Positions 17,608-39,157 of a stretch of DNA of 64,000 nt are shown here, in pieces. The notes beneath the pieces are model-generated. The model had not been told where the DNA came from. It ran no database searches and was given only the letters and a program-made list of their open reading frames with translations. This DNA is from an uncultured Lachnospiraceae bacterium (lineage in GTDB: Bacteria; Bacillota; Clostridia; Lachnospirales; Lachnospiraceae). Every line of letters begins with the position of its first letter. Positions within the stretch are counted from its first letter, which is position 1. Position numbers and translations under genes: made by a program. The stretch is taken from the NCBI GenBank assembly GCA_964481705.1, contig CAYZUC010000003.1, forward strand, positions 608 to 64,607. Direction: 5' to 3'.

Positions 17608-17636
17608 GAGTTTGTTTCCTTTGCACAGATAGAGTT

Positions 17637-18567: not shown

Positions 18568-18594
18568 TTTATCGTTTGTTCCTATCGTTTGTTC

Positions 18595-20382
18595 CTATCT
18601 TATCTTCTGTATCCTGCGGTCATAGGTCATAATTCCATTAACCTCCTCTTCCACATCAGATACCTGTGTATAGCAGCATCCGCTCAGTCCCTTTTTTATC
18701 AACGGGATTACTTCCCCCTTTATCAGATTGTCATAAGCGGTCTGAAGCTCTCCCACTGAATGATATTTGCGATACCCATAGATTCGATCTACACTGGAAT
18801 GTCCCTTCATATAACAGGCAAATCCACCAAACTCCGAGATCACAAATGCACGAGGATCTTTTCGCACTTCGAGCTTACGAAAGTAGTTATGTACGCTCTT
18901 AAAATCACCGCCTCCCTGGTCAAACCAACCGCTGGCATGATCAATGGTTCGTGTTTTATCAATCTGACGTATTTTATCTACTGCATCCATAGCATCGAAC
19001 TGTCCCCAGCCTTCGTTGAACGGAACCCAAGTGGAAATGGATGTCGAATTATAAAGCGTCTCCACCGTTTCCTTACACTCCCGGATCCACTCCTTCCTGC
19101 TCGCAGGATCCTGTCTGGCAAATAAATGGTACTTATTATCCCGCAGCTCTGAGAAGGTTCCCGGAAAAACGGTCGGCAGGTAGCTTACTAGCGGCTTTGA
19201 ATAAGAGGTACCGCCACTGACCATATCCTGCCACACGATCATACCCAGACGATCACAATGGTAATACCACCTTGCACTCTCTATCTTCATATGCTTACGC
19301 ATCATGCGATAGCCCATCTTTTTCATGGTCATGATATCATAAATCAATGCCTCATCAGAAGGTGCTGTATAGAGTCCATCCGGCCAATATCCCTGATCCA
19401 AAACGCCAAACAAGAAGTAGGGCTTATGATTTAGAAAAAATCGCATCGTTCCCCTTTTATCAGGCTCTATGGTAAAGGAACGCATACCAAAATAGCTTTT
19501 TACAACATCCTCTCCTGCTATCAGTTCCAAATCATACAGGAATGGATTCTTGGGACTCCATGTATGATGCGACTCCAGTTCCAAAACAAGTGTGATGGGG
19601 CGACCTGCTTCGCAATGTGCACTTGACTTTGCGTCCGGCTCCTCCCCAGCAAATGCTTGAACACTGACTACCATATCATCCGAGGTTTCCACGCGGACAA
19701 ACAAACGGTTCTTATCAAAATCGGGAGTCAAACGGAAGCTCCTGATATATTCCTTCGGCCGCCATTCCAGCCAGACCGTCTGCCAGATACCGCTCTGACC
19801 TGTATAAAACATGCCGCCACGCTTTAGTGTCTGCTTTCCTCTACTGTGAAACGAAGTGTCGGTATCATCCTGCGCAACCACGGTAAGGATGTTCTCTCCT
19901 ACGGTCAGATAATCTGTAATATCTACTTCAAAGGGAAGATACCCGCCAAGGTGACTAATTACCTTTTTTCGATTCACGTAGATAGCACAAATCTGATCTA
20001 CCGCTCCAAAATGGAGAAAGCAACGTCCTTCTCGATACGGACATTGCAGCTCTACAGAATCCATATCCAGGATTCTCTCATACCAAAGGTACTCTTCCGG
20101 CTGAAGCTGCCTTTGTACGCCGGAAAGAATGCTCTCCGGAGAAAAAGGAACTAATATCCTGCCATCAAACTGCCCATTATATTCTGCCGAATCCGTAATA
20201 GCATAATCCCACCAACCGTTCAGAATGACAAAGGACTCTCGACAGCATTGTGGTGTGGGATGCTCCTGTAACACAGTACCATCTCCTTGTTGTACCTTTT
20301 CTCCCCACACAGTCATAAGAGGAGCCAATTCATCCTCCTCATGCGTTTTGTTAATGGCAAAAATCGCATCAAACAAATCCAT
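18595..20382 (-). CDS. Glycoside hydrolase family 2 (beta-galactosidase/beta-glucuronidase/beta-mannosidase family), cytoplasmic
   Basis: I prefer the ATG at 20382 (MDLFDAI) because it has a GGTGGAGG RBS; the track start at 20400 is a TTG without one. Candidate catalytic motifs are WVPFNEGWG (acid/base) and VISEFGG (nucleophile). There is no signal peptide. Confidence 0.8.
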   Translation of the reverse strand: MDLFDAIFAINKTHEEDELAPLMTVWGEKVQQGDGTVLQEHPTPQCCRESFVILNGWWDYAITDSAEYNGQFDGRILVPFSPESILSGVQRQLQPEEYLWYERILDMDSVELQCPYREGRCFLHFGAVDQICAIYVNRKKVISHLGGYLPFEVDITDYLTVGENILTVVAQDDTDTSFHSRGKQTLKRGGMFYTGQSGIWQTVWLEWRPKEYIRSFRLTPDFDKNRLFVRVETSDDMVVSVQAFAGEEPDAKSSAHCEAGRPITLVLELESHHTWSPKNPFLYDLELIAGEDVVKSYFGMRSFTIEPDKRGTMRFFLNHKPYFLFGVLDQGYWPDGLYTAPSDEALIYDIMTMKKMGYRMMRKHMKIESARWYYHCDRLGMIVWQDMVSGGTSYSKPLVSYLPTVFPGTFSELRDNKYHLFARQDPASRKEWIRECKETVETLYNSTSISTWVPFNEGWGQFDAMDAVDKIRQIDKTRTIDHASGWFDQGGGDFKSVHNYFRKLEVRKDPRAFVISEFGGFACYMKGHSSVDRIYGYRKYHSVGELQTAYDNLIKGEVIPLIKKGLSGCCYTQVSDVEEEVNGIMTYDRRIQKIR

Positions 20383-20457: not shown

Positions 20458-21285
20458 TTATCTAGTCAATGCTCCGGATGGCTCTTTTATTCCATCCAAA
20501 CTCATTCCCTTTTCTTCAAGAAAACAATCCATTATCTTCTGTATCTGTTCCTTTTCATCTTGAGATGTCACAACCTGCAACATTTTCTGCAGTACCTGCG
20601 CTGCCTGAATATCACTCAAATATCTGTGCTGGCCACTTCCCATACGCACTACTTCCGGTTTCTTGTCGTTGTAATAAAACTCCCAGAACTTAACCTGATG
20701 AGCTTCCTCCTCCGAAAGAGCTATACAGTACTCCGGATGTGCCTCAAGAAAGCCTTCCGACTCTCCCTCTGCATCACTATGATTCTGAACGAGAAATACG
20801 GAGTAAATATAACGATCCTTCTCTTCTGTCTTAGCATCGCGGGTGGTAAGCATAACAAGATTACCCTTAGAAACACCACGGAAGTTCATGGCTGTACCCT
20901 TTTTTGCACCACTCATGACGCGTCCGGCTGTTACCCTCCTGTCATCACCAAGTGCCTCTGCTTTCTCTCTTTTTATTGCCACATTACATTTATTTGCCGG
21001 CTGCGAACCCGCAGACGTGGAGGGACGTGCATCCTTCTTCTCGCGAATCTCGCTTAATACCTTTGTCCGTTCCTGATCTTCCTGATCCTTTTTCTTTGAG
21101 ATTACTGCATTCATTATATTTTCTGTCTTTTCATCTTCCAGCTTCAGAAACGTCCCAAACCCTTCCGGATAAACAAACTTCTTTTTATCCTTACGAAATG
21201 CAACCGTTACTGTCTTATCCTGCTGATCAACAATGGTGCCTGCTCCAAACTTTGTATGAGTCACCTTTTGATTCAATAAATCCAT
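20458..21285 (-). CDS. Hypothetical protein with an N-terminal Tudor/DUF3553-like motif
   Basis: 275 aa. The N-terminus KVTHTKFGAGTIVDQQDKTVTVAF resembles the small beta-barrel motif at the C-terminus of PcrA/UvrD. A K/E/D-rich linker follows, then a roughly 150-aa C-terminal domain of unknown family. It has its own extended -10 (TGTTATACT, -10 at 21338-21333). Confidence 0.5.
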   Translation of the reverse strand: MDLLNQKVTHTKFGAGTIVDQQDKTVTVAFRKDKKKFVYPEGFGTFLKLEDEKTENIMNAVISKKKDQEDQERTKVLSEIREKKDARPSTSAGSQPANKCNVAIKREKAEALGDDRRVTAGRVMSGAKKGTAMNFRGVSKGNLVMLTTRDAKTEEKDRYIYSVFLVQNHSDAEGESEGFLEAHPEYCIALSEEEAHQVKFWEFYYNDKKPEVVRMGSGQHRYLSDIQAAQVLQKMLQVVTSQDEKEQIQKIMDCFLEEKGMSLDGIKEPSGALTR

Positions 21286-22149: not shown

Positions 22150-22189
22150 AATAAAAAACAGCCATAGGAGACGAATCTCCCATGACTGT
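22150..22189 (-). terminator. Rho-independent terminator after the repeat lipoprotein gene
   Basis: A 14-bp stem (22158-22171 with 22176-22189) has a 4-nt loop. It is perfect on the minus-strand RNA if two G-U pairs are allowed, but has two mismatches on the plus strand. UUUUUAU follows. Confidence 0.75.
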
Positions 22190-22207
22190 CAGGATAATCA
22201 GTATTGA

Positions 22208-22483
22208 TTATTCTGCTACTGTTGTAGCCTCTGTAGCTGCTTCTGTTGTAGCTGCTTCTGTTGTAGCTTCTTCAGTTGTAGCTGCTTCTGTTGTAGCTTC
22301 CTCTGTTGTAGCTGCTTCTGTTGTAGCTTCTACTGTTGTAGCCTCTGTAGCTGCTTCTGTTGTAGCTTCTACTGTTGTAGCTTCTACTGTTGTAGGCTCT
22401 ACTGCTGCCTCAGAACCACATCCTACCATCATTGTTGCTGTCATCATAACTGCTGCTGCTAATAAAACGATTTTGTTTTTCAT
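22208..22483 (-). CDS. Small lipoprotein with a Thr/Glu/Ala-rich tandem-repeat tail
   Basis: MKNKIVLLAAAVMMTATMMVGC contains a lipobox, and AGGAGGAG lies 7 nt upstream of the ATG at 22483. The mature part is almost entirely EATT/EAATT repeats. Confidence 0.75.
   Translation of the reverse strand: MKNKIVLLAAAVMMTATMMVGCGSEAAVEPTTVEATTVEATTEAATEATTVEATTEAATTEEATTEAATTEEATTEAATTEAATEATTVAE
22214..22407. repeat. Imperfect in-frame tandem repeats (about 30-nt period built from 15-nt subunits) inside the lipoprotein gene
   Basis: Repeated units are visible directly in the DNA, for example GCTGCTTCTGTTGTAGCTTC(T/C)(T/A)C(A/T)GTTGTA. Confidence 0.8.
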
Positions 22484-22541
22484 AATAAAACTCCTCCTGA
22501 AATCTTTTTTATGTTGTTTGGTTTCCCTTACAACAAAAGTG

Positions 22542-22570
22542 AGTATAACCCATTCCAGGATAGTTGTAAA
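22542..22570 (-). promoter_or_regulatory. Candidate sigma-A promoter for the repeat lipoprotein gene
   Basis: The minus strand reads TTTACA, a 17-nt spacer, then TATACT. It lies about 60 nt upstream of the ATG at 22483. Confidence 0.45.
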
Positions 22571-22754
22571 TAGACTTTGAACATTTTTGTACAATTCGTG
22601 AATAAAATGTGTGTTTGTTCATATTTTATTCATATACTTTGTCAATATGACTATTTTACTCAAAATAATAACTTCTTTTTGTGGTGATTACCAACATGTA
22701 CAGGTTTACATAATTATTTCATTGTGCATGTTTACTTAACTTATTTTTGCTTTC

Positions 22755-23378
22755 TCATCCTGTGATTTCTCTCATGAATTTTATCATATCCTCCACGCGT
22801 TCTCCATTTACGGTTACAGAATCCAAAAGGAACGTTCCGTCCTCATAAAGTACAAAATTTACCTTGAAGACATCCTCTCCATGAGTGCCAGTATACCATA
22901 CGCAGATATCATTTTGCGGACTCACGATAGCTGACCACTCACCCTGTCCGTAACCAGTAAGTATATCATTTACCGTCACAGAGGAACCCGAAAAATAACA
23001 TTGACCAACCATAGCCTGTTTTGCTGTGGCGGCTATATCCGTCTTACTTGTTATGTTTGTAAAGCTTACTACAACGGTTCCCGTTGCATAATCCACGCCT
23101 GCCCTATTTTTCGAGTAAGGGCCATTCATACCGGAAACCGTAAACTCATCCGCATGATTGCTTTCTTTGTCTCCAGAGCCCTCTCCTACTGCACTCTTTG
23201 CCTTTTGTTTTGCTTCTCCTGCATTTACAGAGGATTCCAAAGCATTGGAATCAGAAATGGAGGCGCCGGAAACCTCATCGCCGGAAATTGATTTTCCTTT
23301 CTTACCACATCCTGTGCACAGCAGCAACGCACAGCACAACAACAATCCCAAAAGAAAATAACTCTTTATCCTGTCCAT
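22755..23378 (-). CDS. Lipoprotein of unknown function
   Basis: MDRIKSYFLLGLLLCCALLLCTGC contains a lipobox. The ATG at 23378 has a GAGGA RBS; the track start is 23390. It is the last gene of the amidase transcription unit. Confidence 0.75.
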   Translation of the reverse strand: MDRIKSYFLLGLLLCCALLLCTGCGKKGKSISGDEVSGASISDSNALESSVNAGEAKQKAKSAVGEGSGDKESNHADEFTVSGMNGPYSKNRAGVDYATGTVVVSFTNITSKTDIAATAKQAMVGQCYFSGSSVTVNDILTGYGQGEWSAIVSPQNDICVWYTGTHGEDVFKVNFVLYEDGTFLLDSVTVNGERVEDMIKFMREITG

Positions 23379-23463
23379 ATATGTCCTCATTCCTAAACAT
23401 CCTATTGTTTATCTTAAGCTTGTACTGCAAAGAAACTGCCGAAATAGCTTCGGCAGTTCCTAG

Positions 23464-24153
23464 TTATTGTTGTATATGATAGGTACCTGCGAAGGAACTT
23501 GTTCCTTCCTTATCCGTAATTTCAATCACGCCATCATCTGTCATTTTGATTTCAAAGGAAAAATCCTCTCCCTTATAGACAGCATGATCGCCTTCTGGCT
23601 GAAGTTCGGTTGTAAAGATTTCTTTCTCACCCTTACGCACGTTCATCTCAAAGGAATGAGAATCAGCCATAGCCAAATCTACATATTTCGTTCCGTTGTC
23701 ATCAACAAAGCTTCCAAACCAGCTATATTCCTTATCTGTCTCCTCATTGTAGAGTGGAAATTCCGAGAAGTCACATACTGTGTTGTTCTCGATATCGTAT
23801 GCCATGACATCTCCGGTTACTGTATTTACAGCAAGACCATAATCAGTTAATTCCTTACCATCTGATGTAACCCTTGCTACGTAATAATCTTGATCTGATA
23901 AGTCAACAACATCCTTCTGTACCTTAAAGGTTGCATCTTTTCCTTGAAGCTTCTCTTCAATTAAGCTCTCCGCATCCTTCTTTGACAGTTCATATGTGAA
24001 TGAGCTGTCCTCAACCGGCTTTGCAGCATATCCTCCTTCACTTACTTCTGATGGATTTACCTCTGTTGTGGGAGATGGAGCTTTTCCGACAGAGCAGCCT
24101 GTTATAAGCAGAGCAAATGTTGTAATACATATTCCTATTTGAACTCTTTTCAT
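23464..24153 (-). CDS. Lipoprotein with a PepSY-like N-terminal module
   Basis: MKRVQIGICITTFALLITGC contains a lipobox. The ATG at 24153 has a GGGAGAG RBS; the track start at 24168 abuts the amidase stop. The pattern DAESLIEEKL...YYVARVTSDGKE...LAVNTVTGDVMAYD resembles PepSY. This is by eye and needs an HMM search. Confidence 0.65.
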   Translation of the reverse strand: MKRVQIGICITTFALLITGCSVGKAPSPTTEVNPSEVSEGGYAAKPVEDSSFTYELSKKDAESLIEEKLQGKDATFKVQKDVVDLSDQDYYVARVTSDGKELTDYGLAVNTVTGDVMAYDIENNTVCDFSEFPLYNEETDKEYSWFGSFVDDNGTKYVDLAMADSHSFEMNVRKGEKEIFTTELQPEGDHAVYKGEDFSFEIKMTDDGVIEITDKEGTSSFAGTYHIQQ

Positions 24154-24168
24154 TTTTCTCTCTCCCAT

Positions 24169-27100
24169 CTATTTCCTCTCTAATCCATAGTAGGACGCAA
24201 TGGCATCCGCATTCGCCTGTCCTATTTGCTTCATTTTCTCGGAGCTTAGGAACGAAGCATCTCCGTCCATAAAGAACTCTTCTACAAGAATTGCAGGAAC
24301 GCCCAAAGTAGCTGCGCGATTTAAGACCGCAAGATCCGAACGTGTTTTCAATCCTCTGTTTCCCAGACCAAAATAGTTCTGATTGTAAGAAATAATCTTA
24401 CTTGCCAATCCCTCTTTTTTATCACTTGCCTTTCCGGAAAGTAAAACCTCCGTACCCTTTCCTCCTCCGGCGTTCAGATGAATGCTTACCAGAACATCGC
24501 AGCCCTGGTTCTTTGCCATATCGGCACGATATGCATTATCTACTGTGGAGTCACCGGTTCTCGTCATAACGACTGTTGCATTCTTATAGTCATTCAGTAA
24601 ACGATCCTTACATGCATTCGCAATAATCAAGGTCGCATCCTGTTCTCTCCAGCCATTATAATTTGCTCCATTGTTGCTTCCTCCATGTCCGGGATCCAGA
24701 CATACTTTTACTTTTCCACCGCCTTCTTCTGCGACTGCTTCAGTTACCTTAACCCTGCAGGTAGCTTTGATGCCATTGTCCGTTTCAGCAGTAACCGTGA
24801 TATACGTATTATCCTTCGTCTTCTTTATTCCCTTAATAACTCCCTTGCTGGATACTGTCACATAATTCGTGTTGCTCGAATACCAGGATATGTGTTTTGC
24901 GGTCGTCTGTTCTGGAGTGAATTTTTCAACCTTTAAGGTTTTCGTCTGACCAATTCCAACACTTGTTGATGTAGTGTTCAGTTTGATAGCGCTCGGATTA
25001 CAGAATCTGGAACCGGCAGGTCTGCCCTGAATGCGGTTCTTGCTTACCTTCTCATTGTAATACCAGCCACTGACACGATACTTCATCAGCGTACCATCTG
25101 CAATCACAGACTTATCATAAAAATGGAACACACCATTTGTGGATTTGTAGGACTTACTTGTTTTACTGTCATTTGGATTTAAGGTTACCCAATTATCATA
25201 CGAGCCATCACTATCACCCATGGAACGCTCAATCGTATAGTACTCAATGTACTCTGAACCGGTTCCGGTAATCTTTGTCCAGCTTACATCAGCACCTTCA
25301 TTTGCAGTATGACCTGTAGTTGCAACATTTTCAGGAGCCGCAGGTCTTGGCCACTCTTCAACCACGTTGGAGTAAGCTCCCTGCAGTTCTCCACCCGGAA
25401 GGTTACTATCCTTTTTCACAGCAGAAACACGATAGAAATAATGCTTTCCAGGAGTCAAGCCATCGAAATTCAGATATCTCTTCGTATAGTAAGTAGTTCC
25501 TTTGGAAACCACCCTTCTATAGTAGGTCTCTCCTGCGAATTTATCATTCTCACAGCTTTCTACGATATAACGTTCTGCAGACTTTCCGCAATCCGACCAG
25601 GTAACCTGAATCTTGCTAAGAGATTGTGCTGCTGCTTTCAATGTTGGTGCTTTCAGCTTCGTGTAATCGTAACCATAGGGTTCTTCCACTCCATATTGTT
25701 TCCTATGAACATGAACACCATTTTTGGTAGCCGGACGTACTTTGAACGCATAGTATCGTCCATGCTTTAATCCTGTCTTTTTATAGGTAATCATCTTGGT
25801 TATTTTATTCGCAGATGCCGTACATTTGGCTACCGGTGCATAATACCACTGATCCTCAGGAAGGAGCTTGCCATCTGCTCCCACAATATTCTGAGCCATC
25901 AAAATCTGATAATACTTTGCTCCATCTACCTTTTTAAAGGTCAATTCCATCGCATTGAAGTTTGCACTTTTTACTGTCAGGGATTCCAGATCGTTCAGTT
26001 GGGTTTTGATTCCCTTTGCTTCACTCTTTGCTCCCTGAACCTTGTTAATCACAGAAGAAATCTTGTAATAGTACATTGCCTCAGCCGGGACATTGCTCAG
26101 TGTATACTGCAGACAATTGTAGCTTACTCCTACCTTGCTGCCATCCACTCTCGTTGCCTTGTCGGGTTTTACGGCCTTAACTTTGGTATAATTTGAAAGA
26201 CCATTTTTTGAACGCCAAATCTGGTAATAATTATTTCCTGTAATATCCTTTTGTTCTTCCCATGTAAAAGTTACCGTACTTCCGCTGTTGGAAGAAACAG
26301 ACGCAAAACGCGGAGCATTCATGGCCACTCGTGCCTTTTTTGCAGTAGAACCTTTGGAGGTTACAAGCTTTCCATCTACCTGCGCCTGTGCATAAACCTT
26401 ATAATAGTAATACTCTCCAAATTGAAAATCTTCAAATCCACCGTTTTTATTATGCCCATCATCCAAATAACGTACTGCATCAACACCATTCAGCGCTGTT
26501 ACCACATTGCCAAAATACTTGTGCGTATTCTGTGCATCTGCTCCTGTCATATCAGGCAGTTCGCTATACGCCTTGCTTACACGATAAGCTCTTTTTACCA
26601 TATAGCTGGTAGCACCTTTTGTCTTGGAAAATTCTACTCCCATAACATCCTTACTTCCGTAGGCAGCCGCTGACAATATCGTCGGCGTACACACGACAAC
26701 AGTACCGTCTCCATAAACAATACTTCCATCAGGAACTCTTCTGCCTCCAGAAATACGGTATATATAGCTATCCGAAATCTTTTTGTCATTAAAATGTTTG
26801 GTCATGACTTCACCAAGAAGCTCCCATTCACCATTTGACTTTCTTCTCTCAATTTTATAGAATTTGGCTCCAGTTACGGCTGCCCATGTCAGCTTTACAT
26901 AGTTCTTCTTTGTCAATACTGCCTTGGTATTCTTCTCTGCAGGCGCTGTAACACTTGTCTTTGCCGACACAATATCACTAATCAGAGGGGTATCATTAAT
27001 CTTATCAATTACTTCAATATAATACTCGTATGTTGTATTATACTGGAGTCCCCCATCCTTAAATTTGCGTACATTCGGTTTTAAGGACTTAATCAAATCG

Positions 27101-27498
27101 AAATCCTGTGAACCGTTTAAAGAGGAAACTCTCCTATAAACATTATATCTCTTTGGATTGTAAGTATTGTCATTCCATTTTAGGGTAATCGCTTTTACTT
27201 CCACTTTGTTGACACTTAATGTAAACAAACTGGAATCTGTCTCACCCTTCTCATCCACGACATCCGATCCGGACACTGTATCCTCCGAAATGGTCTCTGA
27301 ACCATCGAGAGCCGTTATCATTGCATTTTCCGTCTCTACACTCTCTGATATGTCATTCTCTGTGATACTTTCTGTCACCTCAGCTGGTAACGCTTCCGCA
27401 AAGACCTGAAACCAGTTGCCGGAAGTCAATGTCATGGCAATTGCCAGCACAATACCCAGAAATCTCTTCGTTTGCATACTCATCAATACGTTTCTCAT
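24169..27498 (-). CDS. Secreted multi-FN3/Big_2 protein with a C-terminal N-acetylmuramoyl-L-alanine amidase (Amidase_3) domain
   Basis: 1109 aa. It has a signal peptide (FLGIVLAIAMTLTSGNWFQVFA), an acidic linker, about seven FN3-like modules and a Big_2-like module (KTLKVEKFTPEQTTAKHISWYSSNTNYVTVSSKGVIKGIKK). The amidase motifs are KVCLDPGHGG, VSIHLNAGGG and LVEEFFMD. Confidence 0.85.
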   Translation of the reverse strand: MRNVLMSMQTKRFLGIVLAIAMTLTSGNWFQVFAEALPAEVTESITENDISESVETENAMITALDGSETISEDTVSGSDVVDEKGETDSSLFTLSVNKVEVKAITLKWNDNTYNPKRYNVYRRVSSLNGSQDFDLIKSLKPNVRKFKDGGLQYNTTYEYYIEVIDKINDTPLISDIVSAKTSVTAPAEKNTKAVLTKKNYVKLTWAAVTGAKFYKIERRKSNGEWELLGEVMTKHFNDKKISDSYIYRISGGRRVPDGSIVYGDGTVVVCTPTILSAAAYGSKDVMGVEFSKTKGATSYMVKRAYRVSKAYSELPDMTGADAQNTHKYFGNVVTALNGVDAVRYLDDGHNKNGGFEDFQFGEYYYYKVYAQAQVDGKLVTSKGSTAKKARVAMNAPRFASVSSNSGSTVTFTWEEQKDITGNNYYQIWRSKNGLSNYTKVKAVKPDKATRVDGSKVGVSYNCLQYTLSNVPAEAMYYYKISSVINKVQGAKSEAKGIKTQLNDLESLTVKSANFNAMELTFKKVDGAKYYQILMAQNIVGADGKLLPEDQWYYAPVAKCTASANKITKMITYKKTGLKHGRYYAFKVRPATKNGVHVHRKQYGVEEPYGYDYTKLKAPTLKAAAQSLSKIQVTWSDCGKSAERYIVESCENDKFAGETYYRRVVSKGTTYYTKRYLNFDGLTPGKHYFYRVSAVKKDSNLPGGELQGAYSNVVEEWPRPAAPENVATTGHTANEGADVSWTKITGTGSEYIEYYTIERSMGDSDGSYDNWVTLNPNDSKTSKSYKSTNGVFHFYDKSVIADGTLMKYRVSGWYYNEKVSKNRIQGRPAGSRFCNPSAIKLNTTSTSVGIGQTKTLKVEKFTPEQTTAKHISWYSSNTNYVTVSSKGVIKGIKKTKDNTYITVTAETDNGIKATCRVKVTEAVAEEGGGKVKVCLDPGHGGSNNGANYNGWREQDATLIIANACKDRLLNDYKNATVVMTRTGDSTVDNAYRADMAKNQGCDVLVSIHLNAGGGKGTEVLLSGKASDKKEGLASKIISYNQNYFGLGNRGLKTRSDLAVLNRAATLGVPAILVEEFFMDGDASFLSSEKMKQIGQANADAIASYYGLERK

Positions 27499-27535
27499 TT
27501 CATTCCCTCTTCTTCATAATCTGTTTCCGTTTTCA

Positions 27536-27575
27536 ACCAAAAAGAAAGCGTATCATACATAATGTATCATACGCT
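27536..27575 (-). terminator. Terminator-like hairpin inside the leader of the amidase gene (possible attenuator)
   Basis: A 12-bp stem (27547-27558 with 27564-27575) has one central mismatch and a 5-nt loop. On the minus RNA it is followed by UUCUUUUU, and it lies only about 45 nt upstream of the ATG at 27498. Confidence 0.55.
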
Positions 27576-27609
27576 CTCTTCACCATTACAACATTATGTA
27601 ATCCATGTC

Positions 27610-27638
27610 ATTATAGCATGTTTCATAAATGTTGTATA
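27610..27638 (-). promoter_or_regulatory. Candidate promoter (extended -10 TGCTATAAT) upstream of the amidase leader hairpin
   Basis: The minus strand reads TGCTATAAT (-10 at 27615-27610) with a weak -35 TATACA after a 17-nt spacer. Confidence 0.4.
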
Positions 27639-27698
27639 GTATTTCCGAAAATTACCTATATATAGCGATTCAAATTAAGGGAATCTTAATATTTGTTA

Positions 27699-30326
27699 TC
27701 ATTTTACAATAACGTAGAATGTCTTTGTCAGTCTGTAGTTATCGCTGTCATGATTGATTGCTCTTGCTGTAATACGATAGGTTCCTGCAGGACATCCTGT
27801 ACTTACACTCACTACTCCATTGTAATCATTGGAGCCGCTATCCTTTGCCTTTACATTAATCCAAGGGGTCGAGCTGTCCCAGGAAATGGATTTCTGAGTC
27901 GGATCAAAGGTGGTGCTGTTGTCATGCTTGTAGTATTTCACTCCAATCGTTTCTTGTTTTCCTTTGTCAATGGTAATCATCTGGTTTCCATTAATTACGG
28001 AAAGCTTCTGATTCTCAAGAGCAATTCGATATGGCGTGGAATAGGTATCTGATTTCCACTTACCAATCACTTCCGTGCTTCCTTCATATACACCTGCAAT
28101 TCGATACGTGTATTCTACACCGTTCGTGACATTGGTGCGGTGGCTGCGTGCCCTGGTATTGGTCAGCACATGATAGCTGCCGCCATCCTTACTGTATTCA
28201 ATGCGGTACAGATCCACCTCCGGATCATAAGCTCTTGACCATGTCAGCTTTGCTCCATTGGAGTTGCTTGTATCATAGCTTACATTGAATTCTTCAATTG
28301 TTCTCGGAATTGGTCGTACCCCATTCGATGGATCAGACCAATCCGTACTGTTCTCTTCATCTGTCCAAACCTTCAATTCCGTGTAATACTTCACTCCCGG
28401 AGTCAGTCCATCAATGATACAATAACGTTTGTTGAATTCATCCGAACGTTTTTCGATATCCTTCTGTCCTGTTACCGTTGCAAAGGTTGGATCCGTGCTG
28501 TATCGAACCGTATACTTGATCGCTTTCTTATTAAATGGCGACCATTTTGCTTTAATCTTACGAAGAGAATAGCTGCTGGCTACCGGTGTGGGTCCTATCG
28601 CAGTAACCTTGATCTCATTAGACGAAACACAGTTATCCACTCCTCCATTATGAGTACACTCCTTGTTTCCGATCATCGGCATGATCTTGTACGAATAAAC
28701 GGAACCAAGGTCTACCCTTTTATCCTTGATATATACATATCCATTCTTCGCCTTTAATCCGGGAGTTCTTAAGTAACTCAGCTTTTCATAATTTCCTGCC
28801 ACACCATTCTCGATCTTATTTCGATATACCTGATACTTGGTGGCATAATCCACTTTTTCAAATGAAAGCTCAATAACCCCATTTTTTCCAATGTTCGTTG
28901 CCATAGGATCCTTTACCATTCCAAGGTGTGTCATATCATAATCAACATCACTGAAGGCACCGGCTGACTTTCCGGCTACTGCACGTACTTTATAATAGAA
29001 ATTCTGTTCCGGCTTCATTGGGAAATTAACATAGGTCCATCCTTTTACAATACTGTCATCATCACGGATGTCATTCGATATTTCGTCATCCTTAAAGAAT
29101 CTGGACCAATCAAAAGGATGACTGTCCACATAGCTTTTGTCAATGACTCCTCCAGCCACGCTTCCCTTTTTCAGCATGGATTTTGATACTCTCTTATAGG
29201 AACCATTCTCTTTATTGGAATAGAAAATCTCATAAGAAGAAGCATCCTTAATGGCATTAAAAGCTATCTCGATTTTGTTTGCACTCACATTATATGCAGT
29301 ACAAAGATATGGTTTTCCAATCACAGATTTTGCTTTCTTCGTAGAGGAAATCAAGGACTCCACTGCTTTTCCTGCTTCCAGAGTAAAGACTGCCTTCACT
29401 TGATAGGAGTACTTTTCACCAAGTGAAACTGTTCCACTGTCATCCGTATAAACAAGAGCAACCGCGTGTGAGGATTTGATTCCCTTTCCGGAGTAATTGT
29501 CAATTACCTCACAATCGTTTTCACTGATTGTTTTAATCTTTTCCTTATTTCGATAAATCTCATAGGTGATATGATTGCCTTTCACCTGTTCAAAGGTAAA
29601 ATCAAAGGACGGTTTTCCATTATCTGTTCCATCAAATGGAGACGCTGACCAATCCACACCGTCACTATACGCTGCCACCAAATCCAATGCGAGCGGCTTA
29701 CACACCACGGACACTGCATTTGGTGCCTTTTCCGTTGCTTCAACAATCTGCTTATCCTTATCATAAGCAACCACCTTATAGACAAAGCTGTCAACACTGT
29801 CGCCAAGGGCATCCTTCTCTATATAAGAGGTCTTAGTGGTAAACCCGCTTCCATTATCTGCAATTTGCTTGAAGCCTTCGTTTCCCTGTCCATCATAATC
29901 CGACACAAAGCGATATAGCTTGTAGTACTTGGACTTATTCATTTTCTTCCAAGCTACCTTAATCTGTCCCTTGCTGTTCATGGTCGCCTGCATAAACTTC
30001 CTATTTGCTTCCGGAACCTGAAGGGGAGATGTCACATCACCACCTGCTTCTGCCAGGGCATCTGCAACCTCATCTGCCTCGATCACTTCCTCATATGCTC
30101 CGGATGCCTGCGCATCAGATTCCTCTTCTGTCATCTCGATGACCTCCGGTTCCTCTGTCAAAGCAGGTTCCTCTGTCTGTTCGGTGTCAATAATCTCTGT
30201 TACGATTCCATCTTCCGGTTCCGTTACTTCTGCTGCAAAAGCGCTGACATTTAAGCTTGTTAGAATCAATGCCATTGTCAGAACAAATGCCAGTCTTTGT
30301 TTCCATGTTTTTCTTATCTCTTTCAC
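27699..30326 (-). CDS. Secreted multi-FN3-like repeat protein with a C-terminal Big_2-like module
   Basis: 875 aa with a GTG start and a GGGGGA RBS. It has a signal peptide (LAFVLTMALILTSLNVSAFA), an acidic linker and about six FN3-like modules (for example IKVAWKKMNKSKYYKLYRF...FVYKVVAYD). It is a paralog of the two neighbouring large ORFs and has no LPXTG. Confidence 0.8.
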   Translation of the reverse strand: MKEIRKTWKQRLAFVLTMALILTSLNVSAFAAEVTEPEDGIVTEIIDTEQTEEPALTEEPEVIEMTEEESDAQASGAYEEVIEADEVADALAEAGGDVTSPLQVPEANRKFMQATMNSKGQIKVAWKKMNKSKYYKLYRFVSDYDGQGNEGFKQIADNGSGFTTKTSYIEKDALGDSVDSFVYKVVAYDKDKQIVEATEKAPNAVSVVCKPLALDLVAAYSDGVDWSASPFDGTDNGKPSFDFTFEQVKGNHITYEIYRNKEKIKTISENDCEVIDNYSGKGIKSSHAVALVYTDDSGTVSLGEKYSYQVKAVFTLEAGKAVESLISSTKKAKSVIGKPYLCTAYNVSANKIEIAFNAIKDASSYEIFYSNKENGSYKRVSKSMLKKGSVAGGVIDKSYVDSHPFDWSRFFKDDEISNDIRDDDSIVKGWTYVNFPMKPEQNFYYKVRAVAGKSAGAFSDVDYDMTHLGMVKDPMATNIGKNGVIELSFEKVDYATKYQVYRNKIENGVAGNYEKLSYLRTPGLKAKNGYVYIKDKRVDLGSVYSYKIMPMIGNKECTHNGGVDNCVSSNEIKVTAIGPTPVASSYSLRKIKAKWSPFNKKAIKYTVRYSTDPTFATVTGQKDIEKRSDEFNKRYCIIDGLTPGVKYYTELKVWTDEENSTDWSDPSNGVRPIPRTIEEFNVSYDTSNSNGAKLTWSRAYDPEVDLYRIEYSKDGGSYHVLTNTRARSHRTNVTNGVEYTYRIAGVYEGSTEVIGKWKSDTYSTPYRIALENQKLSVINGNQMITIDKGKQETIGVKYYKHDNSTTFDPTQKSISWDSSTPWINVKAKDSGSNDYNGVVSVSTGCPAGTYRITARAINHDSDNYRLTKTFYVIVK

Positions 30327-30490
30327 CTTGTTTCCCCCTTGCTCACATTTCTTTTTTTTAGTAGAATACTATTATTTTATCATACTATTATTTGCTTGCA
30401 TAGCTAATATTTGTCATTTTGAAACATTATTTCTTATATTGTTGTTCAATATGGGTCATTGCTTTTAATTGTAGAACATTTCCAAAGTCT

Positions 30491-30525
30491 AATACAAAAA
30501 GCAGCTACACACACGCGTAGCTGCT
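30491..30525 (-). terminator. Rho-independent terminator after the 850-aa FN3 protein gene (structure is bidirectional)
   Basis: A 9-bp stem (AGCAGCTAC at 30500-30508 with GTAGCTGCT at 30517-30525) has an 8-nt loop. On the minus RNA it is followed by UUUUGUAUU. Confidence 0.7.
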
Positions 30526-30537
30526 TTGTTTTCCTTA

Positions 30538-33090
30538 CTATTTTACCGTAATTGTTACTTTCTTACCATCTCCACCAAATCTTGGCTTTAAGGTAACGGT
30601 GGTAGATCCGACTTTTCTGGCCTTTATCTCAATATATGGCTTGCCATCACTATTACCATCATCTGATCTTTCTACAATATTTGTATCAGCAATACTATAT
30701 TTCACATCCTTGAAGGTCGTGTTGCTTGGATCAAAATCCTTTACCTGAATCTTATATTTCTCGCCGACCTTCATCGTTTTCGATTCACTATTCAGTGATA
30801 GGGATTTCGGAACAATAATCGACCTTGCAGTTTTCTCGACTCCTTCTATCTCTCTCACACCATTTGAAGCAACTGCACAAATGCGATATTGGTACTTTCT
30901 TCCGCCAACATAGGAAATCGGGTCACGAACAGCTCGTTTTGTTTTACCATTCTCGGCGATTTCTCCACAGTTCTTCCAAGTCTTTCCTCCATCTACACTT
31001 CGATAGAATCGATATTTGCTGACCTGGGCTTGCTCGTCAGATGTCTCTATGGTAATTCGAATTCCCTGCCATTTGTTCGTATGCTTACCACTACTGTCAA
31101 TATCAGTGCACTCGGATACAATACTCTTCACGGCCTTCGGTCTTGTATAGCCTTCGGTCCATCTGGCTTTCGCCGGATCACTATCTCCGGAAGCGCTGTG
31201 TGTCAGGATACGGTAGTAATACGATACAAAAGGAGTAAGATTCTTGTCGGTTATCAAACGCTTCTTAAATTCCGATTCACCCTTCTTTACTTCATCAACG
31301 GTTACTGCATTTGTAAAATCAGGAGTACCATCCAAACCGGTTACTGTCGTTCTCTGAATCGTATAAGATGTAGCTCCGTATATTGCCGCCCAGCTAACAC
31401 GTATGTTAGACATGCTGCGTCCCTCTACCTTAGGTTTTGGCGAACCTACAATAACATGTCCTGTGACCGGATCACTCATTGCATAGGTTCCCTTGGCACT
31501 TCCATTTACAGGATAAATACGATAAGCATAGTATTTTCCATCCTGTAATCTCTTTTTATCCTGATAGATAATCCGTCCGGTACCCTTATCAACCTTAGAT
31601 GCATTCACTGTTGCAATCTTGCCATATTTTTCTTCACCATTTAAAGCACTGGTATCTAGTGCTGTGCTTCGCTCAATCACATACTTGGTTGCACACTTTT
31701 CATATTTCCAGGATACACGTAACTGTTTTGTACTTACACTGTCAACTTCTACTTCAGAAACCTTTGCAAAGCGGCAGGTATTCTCAATTGGATTACTCAT
31801 AGCTCCGGTAATATTACTTTTACCAACAGCACGTACTCGATAATAATAGGTCTTATCCGGTGTCATCTTGTTGTAATTGGCCATGTAGCCTGCTTTACCG
31901 GTACCGTTGAGTGAAGAAACCTCTGTCAGTGAGCTAACCTTCACTGTTTTTATTACTGAATATCCATGATCACGATATTTGGAACGTAAAATTGCATATT
32001 TGGTAATCTTTCCACTTGGTGGTACTACCTTGGTAAAGGAGAAGATTCCCTTTTTATAGCAAACGGAACCATCCGCATGATCACCGGTAATGCTCAGAAG
32101 CTCAGGTGCTCCAAACACTGCTTTCACCTTGTATCCCTTGGAATATACAGATTCCACTCGAGAATCCTCGGAAAGACCGGATACATAAGCCTTTACACGA
32201 TAGTAGTGTGAAGAATTCAACTTAAATCCGTCAAATGCCTCTGTTGTCTTATCGGTAAAGCAAATCGCCGGAATCCCGTTGTAAACTGTCTCATATGCTT
32301 CCTCACCATTCAGTGCGGATACATTGAGGTCTGCAATTTGCTGATAATCTGCTGTCTTATTCTTACGATCCGAACGCTCGATAATATAATTCACCGGGCC
32401 ATTCTGAATCGGTATGTACATCTGAACACGGTCTGTATTCTCGCCGGTCTGGGCAAACATAATTGTGGGGCTTGCTACTGCTGCAACGGGTGCATCGGAG
32501 GTCCGGGCACCATAACGATCGAAATAAGTCACCAGATAGATATAGGTAGCATCGTCTGGTATTCTCTTATCATTATAAGAACGTTGACTCTTTTTTCTTC
32601 CCGTCTCATCCTGAAGATTAACAATGGTTCCATCCTCAGAAATACGATCAAGACGATAACGTCTTGCTGAACTTCCAGATGGCTTCTTCCAAGTGATTCT
32701 TACCGAGCTGGTGGTTGCTCCCTTGGATTTTTTCGTTGTCAGTACGGCACGTGCCAGCTTCGTATCACTTACTGCACCATTTAATGCAGAGCATACTGCC
32801 TGTCCATTGTAAGAAGAAACCGAATTGATTTCAGATTCTGCTGCGTTGCTCTCTTCTGTAACAGCATCTGTTGTACTCTCTTCTGATACTTCCATCTCTT
32901 CCATCACATCGGCATCCTCCGATGTCTGTGCGTCAGATTCGGAATCCTCCAATTCAACTTCTTCTATAACAGATTCCTGATTCTTAAGTAATTCCTGTGC
33001 GAATGCCTGAGCTGTGCTTCCGCTGAAAATCATAGCTACGGTAAGCAGAAATGCAAGAATTCGCTTTGCATTGATTTTAATTTCTGTCAT
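30538..33090 (-). CDS. Secreted multi-FN3-like repeat protein with a C-terminal Big_2-like module
   Basis: 850 aa with a GAGAGGAG RBS. It has a signal peptide (ILAFLLTVAMIFSGSTAQAFA), an acidic linker, about six FN3-like modules (for example VRITWKKPSGSSARRYRLDRI, LRVSWKYEKCATKYVIERS...YYAYRIYPV) and a Big_2-like end (MKVGEKYKIQVKDFDPSNTTFKDVKYSIADTNIV). Confidence 0.8.
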   Translation of the reverse strand: MTEIKINAKRILAFLLTVAMIFSGSTAQAFAQELLKNQESVIEEVELEDSESDAQTSEDADVMEEMEVSEESTTDAVTEESNAAESEINSVSSYNGQAVCSALNGAVSDTKLARAVLTTKKSKGATTSSVRITWKKPSGSSARRYRLDRISEDGTIVNLQDETGRKKSQRSYNDKRIPDDATYIYLVTYFDRYGARTSDAPVAAVASPTIMFAQTGENTDRVQMYIPIQNGPVNYIIERSDRKNKTADYQQIADLNVSALNGEEAYETVYNGIPAICFTDKTTEAFDGFKLNSSHYYRVKAYVSGLSEDSRVESVYSKGYKVKAVFGAPELLSITGDHADGSVCYKKGIFSFTKVVPPSGKITKYAILRSKYRDHGYSVIKTVKVSSLTEVSSLNGTGKAGYMANYNKMTPDKTYYYRVRAVGKSNITGAMSNPIENTCRFAKVSEVEVDSVSTKQLRVSWKYEKCATKYVIERSTALDTSALNGEEKYGKIATVNASKVDKGTGRIIYQDKKRLQDGKYYAYRIYPVNGSAKGTYAMSDPVTGHVIVGSPKPKVEGRSMSNIRVSWAAIYGATSYTIQRTTVTGLDGTPDFTNAVTVDEVKKGESEFKKRLITDKNLTPFVSYYYRILTHSASGDSDPAKARWTEGYTRPKAVKSIVSECTDIDSSGKHTNKWQGIRITIETSDEQAQVSKYRFYRSVDGGKTWKNCGEIAENGKTKRAVRDPISYVGGRKYQYRICAVASNGVREIEGVEKTARSIIVPKSLSLNSESKTMKVGEKYKIQVKDFDPSNTTFKDVKYSIADTNIVERSDDGNSDGKPYIEIKARKVGSTTVTLKPRFGGDGKKVTITVK

Positions 33091-33187: not shown

Positions 33188-34261
33188 TTATTCGACTTCT
33201 TTTTCCATCTTGTTTATCGTATCCGGATAACTGTCAACTGCAATATCAAAGTTTATGGCCTGATCCTTCAAAATCTTCAAAAACTCGTCTTTATTCTCGT
33301 GAGTAACATAGTAGCCGAAGCCCTGTTTTAAAAGTTCCGGATCCTCATCACCATAGAACATAAAGTCTATCATCCGGTCCCCCACGACACGGGTAAAATG
33401 ACTGTTCTCATAATAGTTGGACGTATCCATGGTCATATTATTGTATCCACTGAAATTGTAATAATCCGTAATATCCGCAAGATCCGACAGAAAGTTCAGA
33501 TAACCGTTCTCAATGCCCTTCGTATATGTCTGGCCAAACAGAGGATTTGTAAAGATGGTCAGTTTAATATCGTTCTCCTTACACAGGTCAATCATCTTCT
33601 GAATCTCTGCAATCGCTTCCTCTCCACGCGGATAGTAATAATCTGCCCAGTATGGCTTATTATTTGCCTCATCAAACTGACTCTCAATATCGAGATTCTC
33701 GGTGCCGGTATTCAGGATACGATCCGAAAATCCAGTATCCCAGGCATCATGCTCTCGAATGGTAGGAATCGCTTTCACCGTTGTAATCAAATCCATATAC
33801 TTCAGGTAGAATCCCAGCTTGTCGGTCATACTGCCATCCCAGGGAAAAGGTTTCCGGTACAGGATGTCCTTATGAAAGCTTCCATCTACAAAATAAGTGA
33901 TATCATCAACACCCATAATAACGTTTTTGGGAACAATCCCATGTGCAATCATAACCTTCAGATTATCGTAATGTTCACTTGGTACTCCCTCAGAATACAT
34001 CATGTCGTAGTAGGTTCCATCATTCATCCTTGTCACATCGATAAATCCAACACGAGAAGAACCAAAGAGAAAGGAGTCAAATTTATCGGGATGCTCCAAT
34101 ACATTTTTCATCTTAATATAGTTCTTATTTGGTTCAACACCATTGTTAACAAGCTTACTTGCATGAAAAACATTATACGGGTCCAGCAATACATTGAAAG
34201 GAAGGAAAATCAATGCAAGAATCAAAAAGAATGCTATTGCTTTTAATAGAAATTTTTTCAT
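33188..34261 (-). CDS. DltD/PatB/AlgJ-like SGNH-type acyl-transfer partner, membrane anchored
   Basis: 357 aa with the N-terminal anchor MKKFLLKAIAFFLILALIFLPF and FLFGSSRVG (GSS nucleophile motif). It lies directly downstream of an MBOAT gene. Confidence 0.75.
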   Translation of the reverse strand: MKKFLLKAIAFFLILALIFLPFNVLLDPYNVFHASKLVNNGVEPNKNYIKMKNVLEHPDKFDSFLFGSSRVGFIDVTRMNDGTYYDMMYSEGVPSEHYDNLKVMIAHGIVPKNVIMGVDDITYFVDGSFHKDILYRKPFPWDGSMTDKLGFYLKYMDLITTVKAIPTIREHDAWDTGFSDRILNTGTENLDIESQFDEANNKPYWADYYYPRGEEAIAEIQKMIDLCKENDIKLTIFTNPLFGQTYTKGIENGYLNFLSDLADITDYYNFSGYNNMTMDTSNYYENSHFTRVVGDRMIDFMFYGDEDPELLKQGFGYYVTHENKDEFLKILKDQAINFDIAVDSYPDTINKMEKEVE

Positions 34262-34280: not shown

Positions 34281-35753
34281 TTAGAATTTAAAGTAAATGA
34301 AATCCTGGCTTGTTCCGTTATGAAGCTTCAGGACAATAATCACACAGGTTACACCCACATAAAAGATCCAGCGCAGTGGCCATTTTACCTTGGAGAACTC
34401 GGCAATCAAGTCTCTCTTTAACGAGAAATAATCATACACCATAAGAGCAATCAACGCAGCAGCCAGCTTTCCAAAGGAAAAGTAAGTCAACTGCATATCT
34501 ACCAGCATTTTAACAACGGAATTACCAAAGTGTATAATGCCACGATGCAGATGTGTGACAATAAAAAAAGCATCCGATACATTATTTGCACGGAAGAAAA
34601 TCCATGCAAAGCTTACCAGCGCAAAGGTCAGGAGTCCATGCAGGAACTTTGAAAGCTTTCCCTTTTCTGCGGGCTTACCATCGGGATTCTTCTTACCAAA
34701 TCTACGACTGCATTCATTCTCAATTACCTGATAAAATCCATGCAATCCTCCCCAAATAATAAATGTCCAGTTGGCGCCATGCCACAGACCACTTACTAAA
34801 AAAGTAATCATCAGGTTCAGATTCACCCTTGCCCTCTTACAACGATTGCCACCAAGCGGTATATAAACATAATCGCGAAACCAGGTAGATAGCGAGATAT
34901 GCCATCTGCTCCAGAACTCCTTAATAGAGGTCGAAAGATATGGATTCTTAAAATTCGTCATTAATTCAATATTAAACAGTCTGGCGGTTCCGATTGCGAT
35001 GTCGGAATAACCGGAAAAATCACAATAAATCTGAAAGGTAAAGAAGATTGCAGCAATAATAAATGTCAATCCAAAATAGTTATGAGCATTATCAAAAATC
35101 ACGTCCACATATTTTGAAATAGCATCCGCGATAATCAACTTTTTAAAGAAGCCAAGCAGCATCAGTCGCAGTCCGTATACTGCCTGATCATGATCAAATT
35201 CCTTTTCTCCATAGAGCTGAGGCATCAGATGGTTCGGTCGTTCAATTGGCCCTGCAACCAATTGTGGAAAAAAGCAGACATACAGGGCATATTTCAAAAA
35301 ATGCTTCTGTGGCTTTGCTTTTCCCTTGTATACATCGATAACATAGCTCAATGACTGGAAAGTATAAAAAGAAATACCCACCGGCAGCATGACCTTGATC
35401 GTAATGGGCTGCAAAGGAATTGCAATACTCTGTAGCAGAGAGGTTACCGATTCACTTAAGAAATTGAAATACTTATAATAAACAAGGATTCCCAGACTTA
35501 TCAGCAATGCAAGAAGCAAATAGCCCTTTTTCTTTGCTTTACTCTCCTCCTTGTCAACCAGTATGGCACATAAATAGGATATCCCTGTTGTAAGAATAAT
35601 CAGAATAACATATTTGGGATTCCAGCTCATATAAAAATAATAGCCCGCAGCTAAAAGAACCAGATATCGATACTTCTTTGGGATGACCCAGTAAATCAAG
35701 AAAACGATTGGCAGAAAAATCGCAAAAGCCAAAGAGTTAAATAGCATAATCAA
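34281..35753 (-). CDS. MBOAT-family membrane O-acyltransferase (AlgI/DltB/PatA-like)
   Basis: 490 aa with PVGISFYTFQSLSY, FFPQLVAGPIER, WSRWHISLSTWF, YIPLGGNR and LWHGANW. The likely start is MLFNS at 35747. Confidence 0.9.
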   Translation of the reverse strand: MIMLFNSLAFAIFLPIVFLIYWVIPKKYRYLVLLAAGYYFYMSWNPKYVILIILTTGISYLCAILVDKEESKAKKKGYLLLALLISLGILVYYKYFNFLSESVTSLLQSIAIPLQPITIKVMLPVGISFYTFQSLSYVIDVYKGKAKPQKHFLKYALYVCFFPQLVAGPIERPNHLMPQLYGEKEFDHDQAVYGLRLMLLGFFKKLIIADAISKYVDVIFDNAHNYFGLTFIIAAIFFTFQIYCDFSGYSDIAIGTARLFNIELMTNFKNPYLSTSIKEFWSRWHISLSTWFRDYVYIPLGGNRCKRARVNLNLMITFLVSGLWHGANWTFIIWGGLHGFYQVIENECSRRFGKKNPDGKPAEKGKLSKFLHGLLTFALVSFAWIFFRANNVSDAFFIVTHLHRGIIHFGNSVVKMLVDMQLTYFSFGKLAAALIALMVYDYFSLKRDLIAEFSKVKWPLRWIFYVGVTCVIIVLKLHNGTSQDFIYFKF

Positions 35754-37374: not shown

Positions 37375-37430
37375 ACCGTTTCCTTTCCATGCATTCGTTT
37401 CTTCTCATTGTTCACTTTATGTCAACCATT

Positions 37431-39149: not shown

Positions 39150-39157
39150 CCTCGCAT

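Follow-up and report, generated by a model that had tools for sequence, protein, structure and literature searches.

Introduction

Several modular autolysins of Gram-positive bacteria are built on a common plan, in which a secreted zinc amidase is fused with a long series of non-catalytic repeats, and these position the enzyme on the wall. Examples are Cwp6 of Clostridioides difficile, LytC/CwlB of Bacillus subtilis and Atl of Staphylococcus aureus, with repeats of the CWB2, LytC and SH3b types. In other cases there is a genetic coupling between a peptidoglycan hydrolase and the protein that controls it, the latter being anchored in the membrane or through a lipid, as occurs in CwlD-GerS, SleB-YpeB, AmiA/B-EnvC/NlpD and LytH-ActH. 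Lipoprotein or PepSY partners of such hydrolases have been described for the couples GerS-CwlD (PMC8496864) and YpeB-SleB (PMC13252411), and EnvC acts with AmiA/B as an envelope partner controlling a peptidoglycan amidase (PMC10268282). Here, a locus is described from an uncultured Lachnospiraceae bacterium (contig CAYZUC010000003.1; the 64,000 nucleotides analysed are called the window), in which the gene of an amidase carried on a rod of fibronectin type III (FN3) modules, C1109, is followed directly by that of a lipoprotein, Lp1. Two amidase-less relatives of the rod, A850 and B875, are encoded upstream of C1109. The FN3-amidase and Lp1 are neighbours in every informative locus, and what is new is an FN3-rod variant of the modular Gram-positive autolysin with a strict amidase-lipoprotein pairing, the autolysin type itself being already known.

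Compared with Cwp6, LytC and Atl, C1109 carries repeats of the FN3 and Big_2 types, has its catalytic domain at the C-terminus, and is accompanied by an obligate partner lipoprotein and by enzyme-less paralogues. The locus also differs from CwlD-GerS and SleB-YpeB in that it has no sporulation context. A relation of Lp1 to GerS, YpeB/PepSY, LytM or ActH could not be detected by sequence, and the amidase domain of C1109 lacks the regulatory insert of AmiA/B/C.

Directly upstream of the rod genes lies a pair formed by a membrane-bound O-acyltransferase (MBOAT) together with a protein of predicted SGNH/DltD fold. MBOAT-SGNH pairs of the PatA/PatB type O-acylate an extracytoplasmic polymer. The systems PatA/PatB, PatA1/PatB1, AlgI/AlgJ/AlgX, WssH/I and CcsH/I are alike in having an MBOAT with a catalytic His and an FxYxxF motif, encoded next to an SGNH/DltD-fold partner; the window pair departs from them in that its partner belongs to an unannotated family and in that it is only facultatively linked with the FN3 proteins. 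The FxYxxF motif marks the acyl-CoA-using MBOATs of MBOAT-SGNH pairs, and in the Dlt system it resides on the separate microprotein DltX (PMC12148441). [quoted passage not shown]

Another type of system relevant here is that of the SLH proteins on pyruvylated SCWP and of the CWB2 proteins on the polymer PSII, which are families of secreted paralogues, some of them fused to amidases, without covalent anchors and encoded near wall-polysaccharide genes that include a pyruvyl transferase. An earlier reading of this DNA, made from the sequence alone (hereafter the sequence-only reading), proposed that the rod proteins are displayed on the wall in a comparable way, and the effect of B. anthracis PatA1/PatA2 on S-layer assembly parallels this idea. 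Unlike the SLH and CWB2 systems, however, A850, B875 and C1109 have no SLH or CWB2 domain, and there are 1-3 paralogues per examined locus, which is not a large display family.

The amidase and its lipoprotein

C1109 (24169-27498, minus strand, 1109 aa) ends in an Amidase_3 domain (PF01520; residues 932-1101, 24196-24705) that scores 113.5 bits, the cut-off being 27 (E 1.5e-32). This domain aligns over its full length with 4rn7, Cwp6 (5j72) and CwlV (1jwq), the first two being its best sequence matches in the PDB, and the zinc-ligand His/Glu/His and the catalytic Glu are in place, since DPGHGG, rEqD, SIHLNA and vEEFF align with these three structures. The alignment with CwlV runs end to end (179 aa), those with AmiA/AmiC end near residue 90 of the domain, and the CwlD model matches weakly. 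On these alignments C1109 is apparently an active, Sec-secreted N-acetylmuramoyl-L-alanine amidase with its catalytic domain C-terminal to an FN3/Big_2 rod.

The Lp1 gene (Lp234; 23464-24168, minus strand) abuts the stop codon of the amidase. Through the SGNH partner, 80 species-level Lachnospiraceae loci were gathered and parsed with local hidden Markov models (HMMs); those in which the contig runs on for 4 kb or more downstream of the MBOAT-SGNH pair were taken as informative for what follows this pair (n=54). A single C-type gene, combining FN3, Big_2 and Amidase_3, is present in 12 of the GTDB loci, and Lp1 is the next gene in all 12. A reciprocal search of metagenomes with a narrower Lp1 alignment recovered 10 loci, 7 of them with upstream sequence, and in 7/7 the amidase open reading frame (ORF) stands directly before Lp1. 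With two metagenomic contigs (L001 and L003) and the window itself, the adjacency amounts to 22/22 informative loci, at intergenic distances from 0 to ~80 nt. Lp1, which the sequence-only reading had treated as incidental, thus forms a strictly conserved unit with the FN3-amidase. The same reading had two lipoprotein genes following the amidase without a gap; this holds for Lp1, and the second, Lp2, starts 73 nt beyond it.

Lp1 has the lipobox LITGC, and its Cys is kept in 14 of 15 Lp1 sequences. Besides the lipobox, the 15 orthologues have in common an acidic linker and two domains. The first, of ~65 aa, contains the motif LAVNAVSGEVxVYD and is modelled in the window protein as a helix and four strands; the second, of ~90 aa, is beta-rich. 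No Pfam family was matched by any of the 15 members or by their consensus sequences, and the Lp1 profile matched no solved natural protein in the PDB. A PepSY identity, suggested by a 'VDAxTGEV'-like motif, was likewise unconfirmed by Pfam with the 15 members and the consensus.

Lp2 (Lp211; 22755-23390, minus strand) has an extracellular domain of ~110 aa without family assignment. Its lipobox is LCTGC, atypical at the -3 residue; it is a lipoprotein in the window and in L003, and in L001 and in L009 (bacterium C-53) it is transmembrane-anchored and not lipidated. These four loci are the only ones in which Lp2 was found. Behind Lp2, a PdaC/DUF3298 lipoprotein is encoded in the two closest relatives, L001 (20222-21052) and L003 (16038-16904); the window has none at this place, although a polysaccharide deacetylase is encoded at 17708-18523. 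A third small lipoprotein of the window (ORF 22208-22594, minus strand; likely start at an internal ATG, 22208-22483) consists of a signal peptide, an MVGC lipobox and T/E/A-rich repeats (TTEAATEATTVEA...), with little else. Genes of 102 aa resembling it lie near the locus in distant relatives (L006, 16429-16737; L001, 21326-21634), and an antisense ORF at 22182-22580 (plus strand) is probably an artefact of the T/E/A repeat.

The FN3 rods

A850 (30538-33090, 850 aa), B875 (27699-30326, 875 aa) and C1109, all on the minus strand, are collinear paralogues with 22-24% identity over ~800 aa (E 1e-20 to 1e-25). Each starts with a short hydrophobic region followed by an AFA/VFA cleavage motif, as read from the sequence, and these N-termini are read as cleavable Sec signals. 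An uncleaved signal-anchor was considered and rejected, because the hydrophobic regions span only ~12-13 residues before the AFA/VFA motifs. The linkers after the signal (58-90 residues) are acidic and disordered, have a net charge of -16 to -25 and consist of D/E/S/T to 46-57%. Iteration of an HMM that was started from three modules detected by Pfam gives 6 FN3 modules in A850, 6 in B875 and 7 in C1109 (residues 93-815, 25054-27222), and 6-7 in close orthologues. Pfam fn3 (PF00041) scores 36.4, 39.6 and 42.1 bits in the three proteins against a cut-off of 25, and a profile of the 19 window modules matches solved FN3 domains, namely titin (2e-23) and the Clostridium thermocellum Fn3-like domain 3mpc (8e-10). 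The consensus of the modules is W-x5-A-x2-Y-x-I-x-R ... Y-x-Y-x-V, in agreement with the signature given in the sequence-only reading. Pfam also gave weak matches to GH85_C and Ig_Rha78A_N, FN3-like modules that occur in glycosidases.

The array is followed by an immunoglobulin (Ig)-like tail. In C1109, Big_2 (PF02368; residues 838-906, 24781-24987) reaches 23.4 bits, above the cut-off of 22.8. In A850 it reaches 18.1 bits and a tail consensus 21.4, both under this cut-off; the A850 tail is homologous to that of C1109 (hhalign 97%). The divergent tail of B875 gave no Pfam match and an hhalign probability of 10-22%, and is Ig-like by eye. Neither A850 nor B875 has a catalytic domain. In summary, the common plan that the sequence-only reading had recognised in ORFs of 850, 875 and 1109 aa (signal peptide, acidic E/T/D/S-rich linker, six to seven modules with an FN3-like signature, and an Amidase_3 extension in the longest) agrees with the coordinates, the collinear paralogy, the charge counts and the profile matches; its Big_2-like module in each protein stands for C1109, stands for A850 by homology, and is not demonstrable for B875.

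The charge of the modules varies along the rod in a regular way. A pattern of basic-acidic-basic-basic-basic-(acidic or neutral) modules recurs in A850, B875, C1109 and their orthologues, and because the alignments are collinear as well, the FN3 modules are positionally differentiated. This is in contrast to giant FN3 adhesins, whose repeats are homogenised.

Wall anchoring and charge

In a 2019 survey of cell-wall hydrolases, the domains found together with Amidase_3 were LysM, AMIN, PGB1, SPOR, SH3, SLAP, CWB2, SLH, CWB1, CW7 and ChW (PMC6403190). No match to SLH, CWB2, CW_binding_1, LysM, SH3, SPOR, PG_binding or ChW families was obtained in A850, B875 or C1109 at a Pfam E-value of 0.1 or below, NCBIfam returned nothing for them except amidase models, and no LPXTG-type motif ([LSN]PxTG-like) is present in the three proteins. 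In addition, the gaps between FN3 modules are no longer than 39 aa, so the array leaves no room for a hidden domain. The claim that LPXTG, SLH, CWB2, LysM, SH3b and choline-binding repeats are missing, made before by eye, is borne out at the level of sequence by these Pfam, NCBIfam and motif searches.

Charge is better conserved than sequence in this family. The N-terminal linker is acidic in all 26 members (net -8 to -114), and the FN3 array is basic in 23 of the 26 (net +11 to +45, pI 8.9-9.6) despite identities of 23-47%. Such conserved basic arrays fit docking on an anionic polymer, and it is plausible that the FN3 rods would dock on a wall polymer that is anionic or acylated. Another example that bears on this point is P0007, a metagenomic relative of 1444 aa, in which Amidase_3 is followed by FN3 repeats and then by a C-terminal Glucosaminidase domain. 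In S. aureus Atl, wall-targeting repeats lie between the amidase and the glucosaminidase. The FN3 repeats of P0007 occupy the place of these repeats, and the analogy with SLH and CWB2 display is therefore reasonable; the modulation of autolysins and S-layer assembly by wall-polymer O-acylation, in the passages of PMC12148441 built on its references 20 and 65, makes it reasonable too.

Distribution and divergence of the locus

The order MBOAT-SGNH-A-B-C-Lp1-Lp2 is repeated in full in L001 and L003. A word-indexed database search gave 8 relatives of A850 and 2 of Lp1, and in an exhaustive profile search ~45 of the 150 best matches are relatives that align collinearly over the full length. Family size was judged from the latter search, the list being swamped by thousands of giant FN3-repeat surface proteins. 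The relatives are of rumen origin. Among the 80 loci, the MBOAT is directly upstream of the SGNH partner wherever the contig extends that far. An FN3-array gene follows the pair in 15 of the 54 informative loci, all of them belonging to the 33 in which the partner is at least 55% identical to that of the window; in the remaining 21, Butyrivibrio included, there is none. Orthologues of A850 are found in L001, L003 and L009, with more distant ones in L010, L011 and L048, and those of B875 in L001 and L003 only. The expectation that triad, lipoproteins and MBOAT pair would travel together has thus failed. The conserved unit is the FN3-amidase with Lp1. A850 and B875 arose by tandem duplication of the rod without the amidase and are confined to a narrow clade; A850 was added first, and B875 followed in the closest circle of relatives around the window.

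The linkage with the acyltransferase is looser. In three metagenomic loci (L093, L094 and L096), C and Lp1 occur without the upstream MBOAT-SGNH pair, and a different MBOAT lies ~2 kb downstream. In L006/L023, a second MBOAT is encoded beyond the amidase and Lp1 (17769-19208, minus strand), together with an ORF at 16801-17649 (minus strand). The second MBOAT of KH1T2 has a 282-aa LB_356-like partner, so that two different polymer-acylation pairs can flank the amidase. The synteny of LCP, GT2, HtrA, ClpX-like, LspA and AA_kinase genes is also kept in KH1T2; the adjacency of the MBOAT pair may therefore be due in part to phylogenetic inertia.

The genes of the block differ from their neighbours in rate of change. 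The MBOAT of the window is 81% identical to that of L003 and 74% to that of L001, and the SGNH partner 83 and 69%, respectively. The corresponding values are 50 and 39% for A850, 48 and 37% for B875, 43 and 35% for C1109, 32 and 36% for Lp1, and 55 and 43% for Lp2. The stretch from A850 to Lp2 accordingly evolves much faster than its neighbours, which fits surface exposure or conflict.

The acyltransferase pair upstream

The MBOAT gene (34281-35753, minus strand, 490 aa) encodes a PatA/AlgI/DltB-like protein that matches Pfam MBOAT with E 6.9e-31 and has, in its translation, the catalytic-His motif WHISL. Its C-terminus ends in FIYFKF, that is, the FxYxxF acyl-shuttle motif, which is present in 75/75 orthologous MBOATs. 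The partner (33188-34261, minus strand, 357 aa) is membrane-anchored. It has no Pfam match and its sequence profile matches nothing in the PDB; 12 of 32 relatives match DUF1574 weakly. Its AlphaFold2 (AF2) model has a mean confidence (pLDDT) of 91.6, and the best Foldseek matches are DltD (6o93, 7dxm, 3bma), followed by GDSL/SGNH esterases, these top matches reaching only E ~1e-3 and a TM-score of 0.39. Invariant in the family are GSS (68-69) and ExSH (285-288).

A Dlt D-alanylation system was considered for this pair and rejected. The DltB equivalog model gives 178 bits, under its cut-off of 375, no AMP-binding or carrier-protein domain of the DltA/DltC type was found among the ORFs scanned between 8.9 and 59.6 kb, and the shuttle motif lies inside the MBOAT. 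On motif and fold evidence, the MBOAT and its 357-aa partner are a predicted polymer O-acyltransferase of the PatA/PatB type and not Dlt. The 'MBOAT/DltD-like pair' of the sequence-only reading is consequently right as to folds. This Lachnospiraceae MBOAT-SGNH family appears to lack annotation, its partner having no Pfam family and only weak similarity to DUF1574.

Transcription and genomic surroundings

The block comprises seven consecutive genes between 22.2 and 35.8 kb, all on the minus strand. Terminator-like hairpins with U-tracts lie 3' of A850 (30498-30527; -20.4 kcal/mol, z -4.5) and between B875 and C1109 (27540-27580; -23.7 kcal/mol, z -7.2), and a strong terminator-like hairpin, identified by its fold energy, ends the block (22157-22190, minus strand as the other two). 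Because stable hairpins with U-tracts sit after A850 and after B875, the arrangement suggests separate transcription units, namely [MBOAT-SGNH], [A850], [B875] and [C1109-Lp1-Lp2...]. A single operon of seven genes was rejected in view of these hairpins and of the facultative linkage to the MBOAT pair. A site resembling a promoter, in which the -10 element is of the extended type (27638-27610, minus strand), lies upstream of the 27540-27580 hairpin, and the hairpin could be either the terminator of B875 or a leader or attenuator of C1109. Rfam at its gathering thresholds gave no match in the window, the hairpin region 27540-27640 included, and no transfer RNA (tRNA) genes were found in the window.

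The block lies between two glycan loci, one at 8.9-17.6 kb, with glycosyltransferases, a pyruvyl transferase and an ABC exporter, and one at 44-58 kb, with LCP, Bac_transf and glycosyltransferases. The domain scans agree here with its earlier placement between two wall-polysaccharide loci and downstream of the MBOAT pair. The polysaccharide pyruvyl transferase (9870-10715, minus strand) and a SASA-family carbohydrate esterase (54367-55506, minus strand) point to a pyruvylated, O-acetylated wall or capsule polymer. An envelope quality-control run (36865-42261, minus strand) includes LspA, or signal peptidase II (36865-37374), an S8 subtilase, a zinc-finger ClpX-like AAA+ protein and a PDZ protease of the HtrA type, and is syntenic in KH1T2. 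Finally, two conserved-looking ORFs of the window, at 20458-21285 (275 aa) and 50142-50888 (248 aa), both on the minus strand, have no Pfam match.

Interpretation of the locus

The explanation that we prefer, at a probability of about one half, is that C1109 is a wall-associated autolysin whose basic rod docks non-covalently on an anionic wall polymer and whose amidase is regulated by Lp1 at the membrane face. According to this proposal, the block would be an autolysin module for wall remodelling or cell separation, in which the basic FN3/Ig rod would hold the amidase on an anionic wall glycopolymer or on peptidoglycan and set its reach. Lp1, tethered on the outer face of the membrane, would inhibit or activate the enzyme, with parallels in GerS-CwlD, YpeB-SleB and EnvC/NlpD with AmiA/B. 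A850 and B875 would act as non-catalytic rods that occupy these wall sites or organise them. Tuning of the ligand may be a role of the acyltransferase next door, which is not an obligate part of the module.

Several points weigh against this proposal. That Lp1 regulates at all, and in which direction, is a guess. Its AF2 model, built from an alignment of two sequences, is poor (pLDDT 49), with a first domain of one helix and four strands, and in that poor model the sole Foldseek match with a probability above 0.25 is the PepSY-containing C-terminal domain of YpeB (5boi; probability 0.69, E 0.73), which is no more than a hint and makes a PepSY-like fold a possible lead. FN3 and Big_2 modules serve as plain spacers or linkers in many bacterial enzymes, and three distant A-type members of the family have acidic arrays. 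Neither module type is in the list of Amidase_3 wall-binding domains of the 2019 survey (PMC6403190). The amidase domain alone is only 43-44% identical to its counterparts, against 81-83% for the neighbours, which would also fit conflict systems. The distribution is patchy, with the module beside the MBOAT pair in only 15 of the 33 close species loci, so that a housekeeping autolysin of universal occurrence is not what it represents.

Some of these points lead directly to other explanations. The rods could be passive spacers or rulers without wall affinity, the lipoproteins tethering the secreted proteins in trans and the rod setting the depth of the amidase. The strict adjacency of amidase and Lp1, the presence of Lp2 together with A850 in the window, L001, L003 and L009, the fixed array length of 6(+1) modules, the absence of a known anchor and the frequent role of FN3 as a linker in bacterial enzymes all speak for this arrangement; however, a mere spacer would need neither the strong, conserved positive charge nor the positional charge pattern, and the three rods are not matched by three lipoproteins across genomes, so that we regard it as doubtful. 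Unlikely in our judgement is a bolder form of the docking proposal, in which the FN3/Big_2 rod is a new non-covalent anchor that recognises a specific wall glycopolymer, perhaps the O-acylated or pyruvylated one made by neighbouring genes, A850 and B875 are display or scaffold proteins with the same anchor and Lp1 represents a new class of lipoprotein regulator or immunity protein for an Amidase_3 enzyme. The tight coupling of a peptidoglycan hydrolase to a small downstream lipoprotein might also recall an interbacterial weapon, with C1109 as a secreted bacteriolytic amidase, Lp1 as its membrane-tethered immunity protein and MBOAT-SGNH acylation as a possible means of self-protection. The fast divergence of amidase, rods and Lp1 relative to their neighbours, the patchiness of the module among close species, the small size of the family and the turnover of its paralogues would suit such a system. 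On the other hand, different species keep the chromosomal position and the wider synteny, the vicinity is free of genes for mobile elements, secretion systems or toxin delivery, orphan immunity genes were not seen (7/7 Lp1 loci have the amidase), and the enzyme-less A850 and B875 are hard to explain as toxins, which makes a weapon improbable.

Two further possibilities start from the rods themselves. If these were adhesins or surface-display proteins binding plant fibre, host glycans or cells, the amidase fusion would be incidental; the family profile does also match thousands of giant FN3-repeat surface proteins, and the weak GH85_C and Ig_Rha78A_N matches and the rumen relatives would be in keeping with this. 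But it is the fusion to the amidase, accompanied by Lp1, that is ancestral and has the widest distribution, Pfam detects no carbohydrate-binding module, lectin, dockerin or anchor domain, and an adhesin without an anchor could not hold the cell to anything, and we give this view very little weight. A prophage remnant, made of an endolysin and tail-fibre-like FN3 proteins, is brought to mind by the matches of the amidase to PHROG endolysin families and by weak matches of the Ig-like parts to Ig domains of tail proteins. It is scarcely credible given the signal peptides on all three proteins, the lack of other phage genes in the window and of tRNA or integrase genes nearby, the flat GC content, and the same position of the genes in many species.

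Biological significance

Should the rods prove to be spacers and Lp1 an accessory of little importance, this would be merely another modular autolysin. To our knowledge, hardly any work has dealt with the wall biology of Lachnospiraceae from rumen and gut, and we know of no anchors of the kinds described in Bacillus, Clostridioides and Staphylococcus for most of their autolysins. In this context, an FN3/Ig rod of fixed length and conserved charge pattern is a candidate wall-targeting device. The loci offer a natural series with one, two and three rods, which includes the cultured Hungate isolates KH1T2, MA2020, NK4A144 and MC2017, plus bacterium C-53. The strictly co-inherited pair of amidase and lipoprotein could represent a new means of control of, or of protection against, a peptidoglycan amidase.

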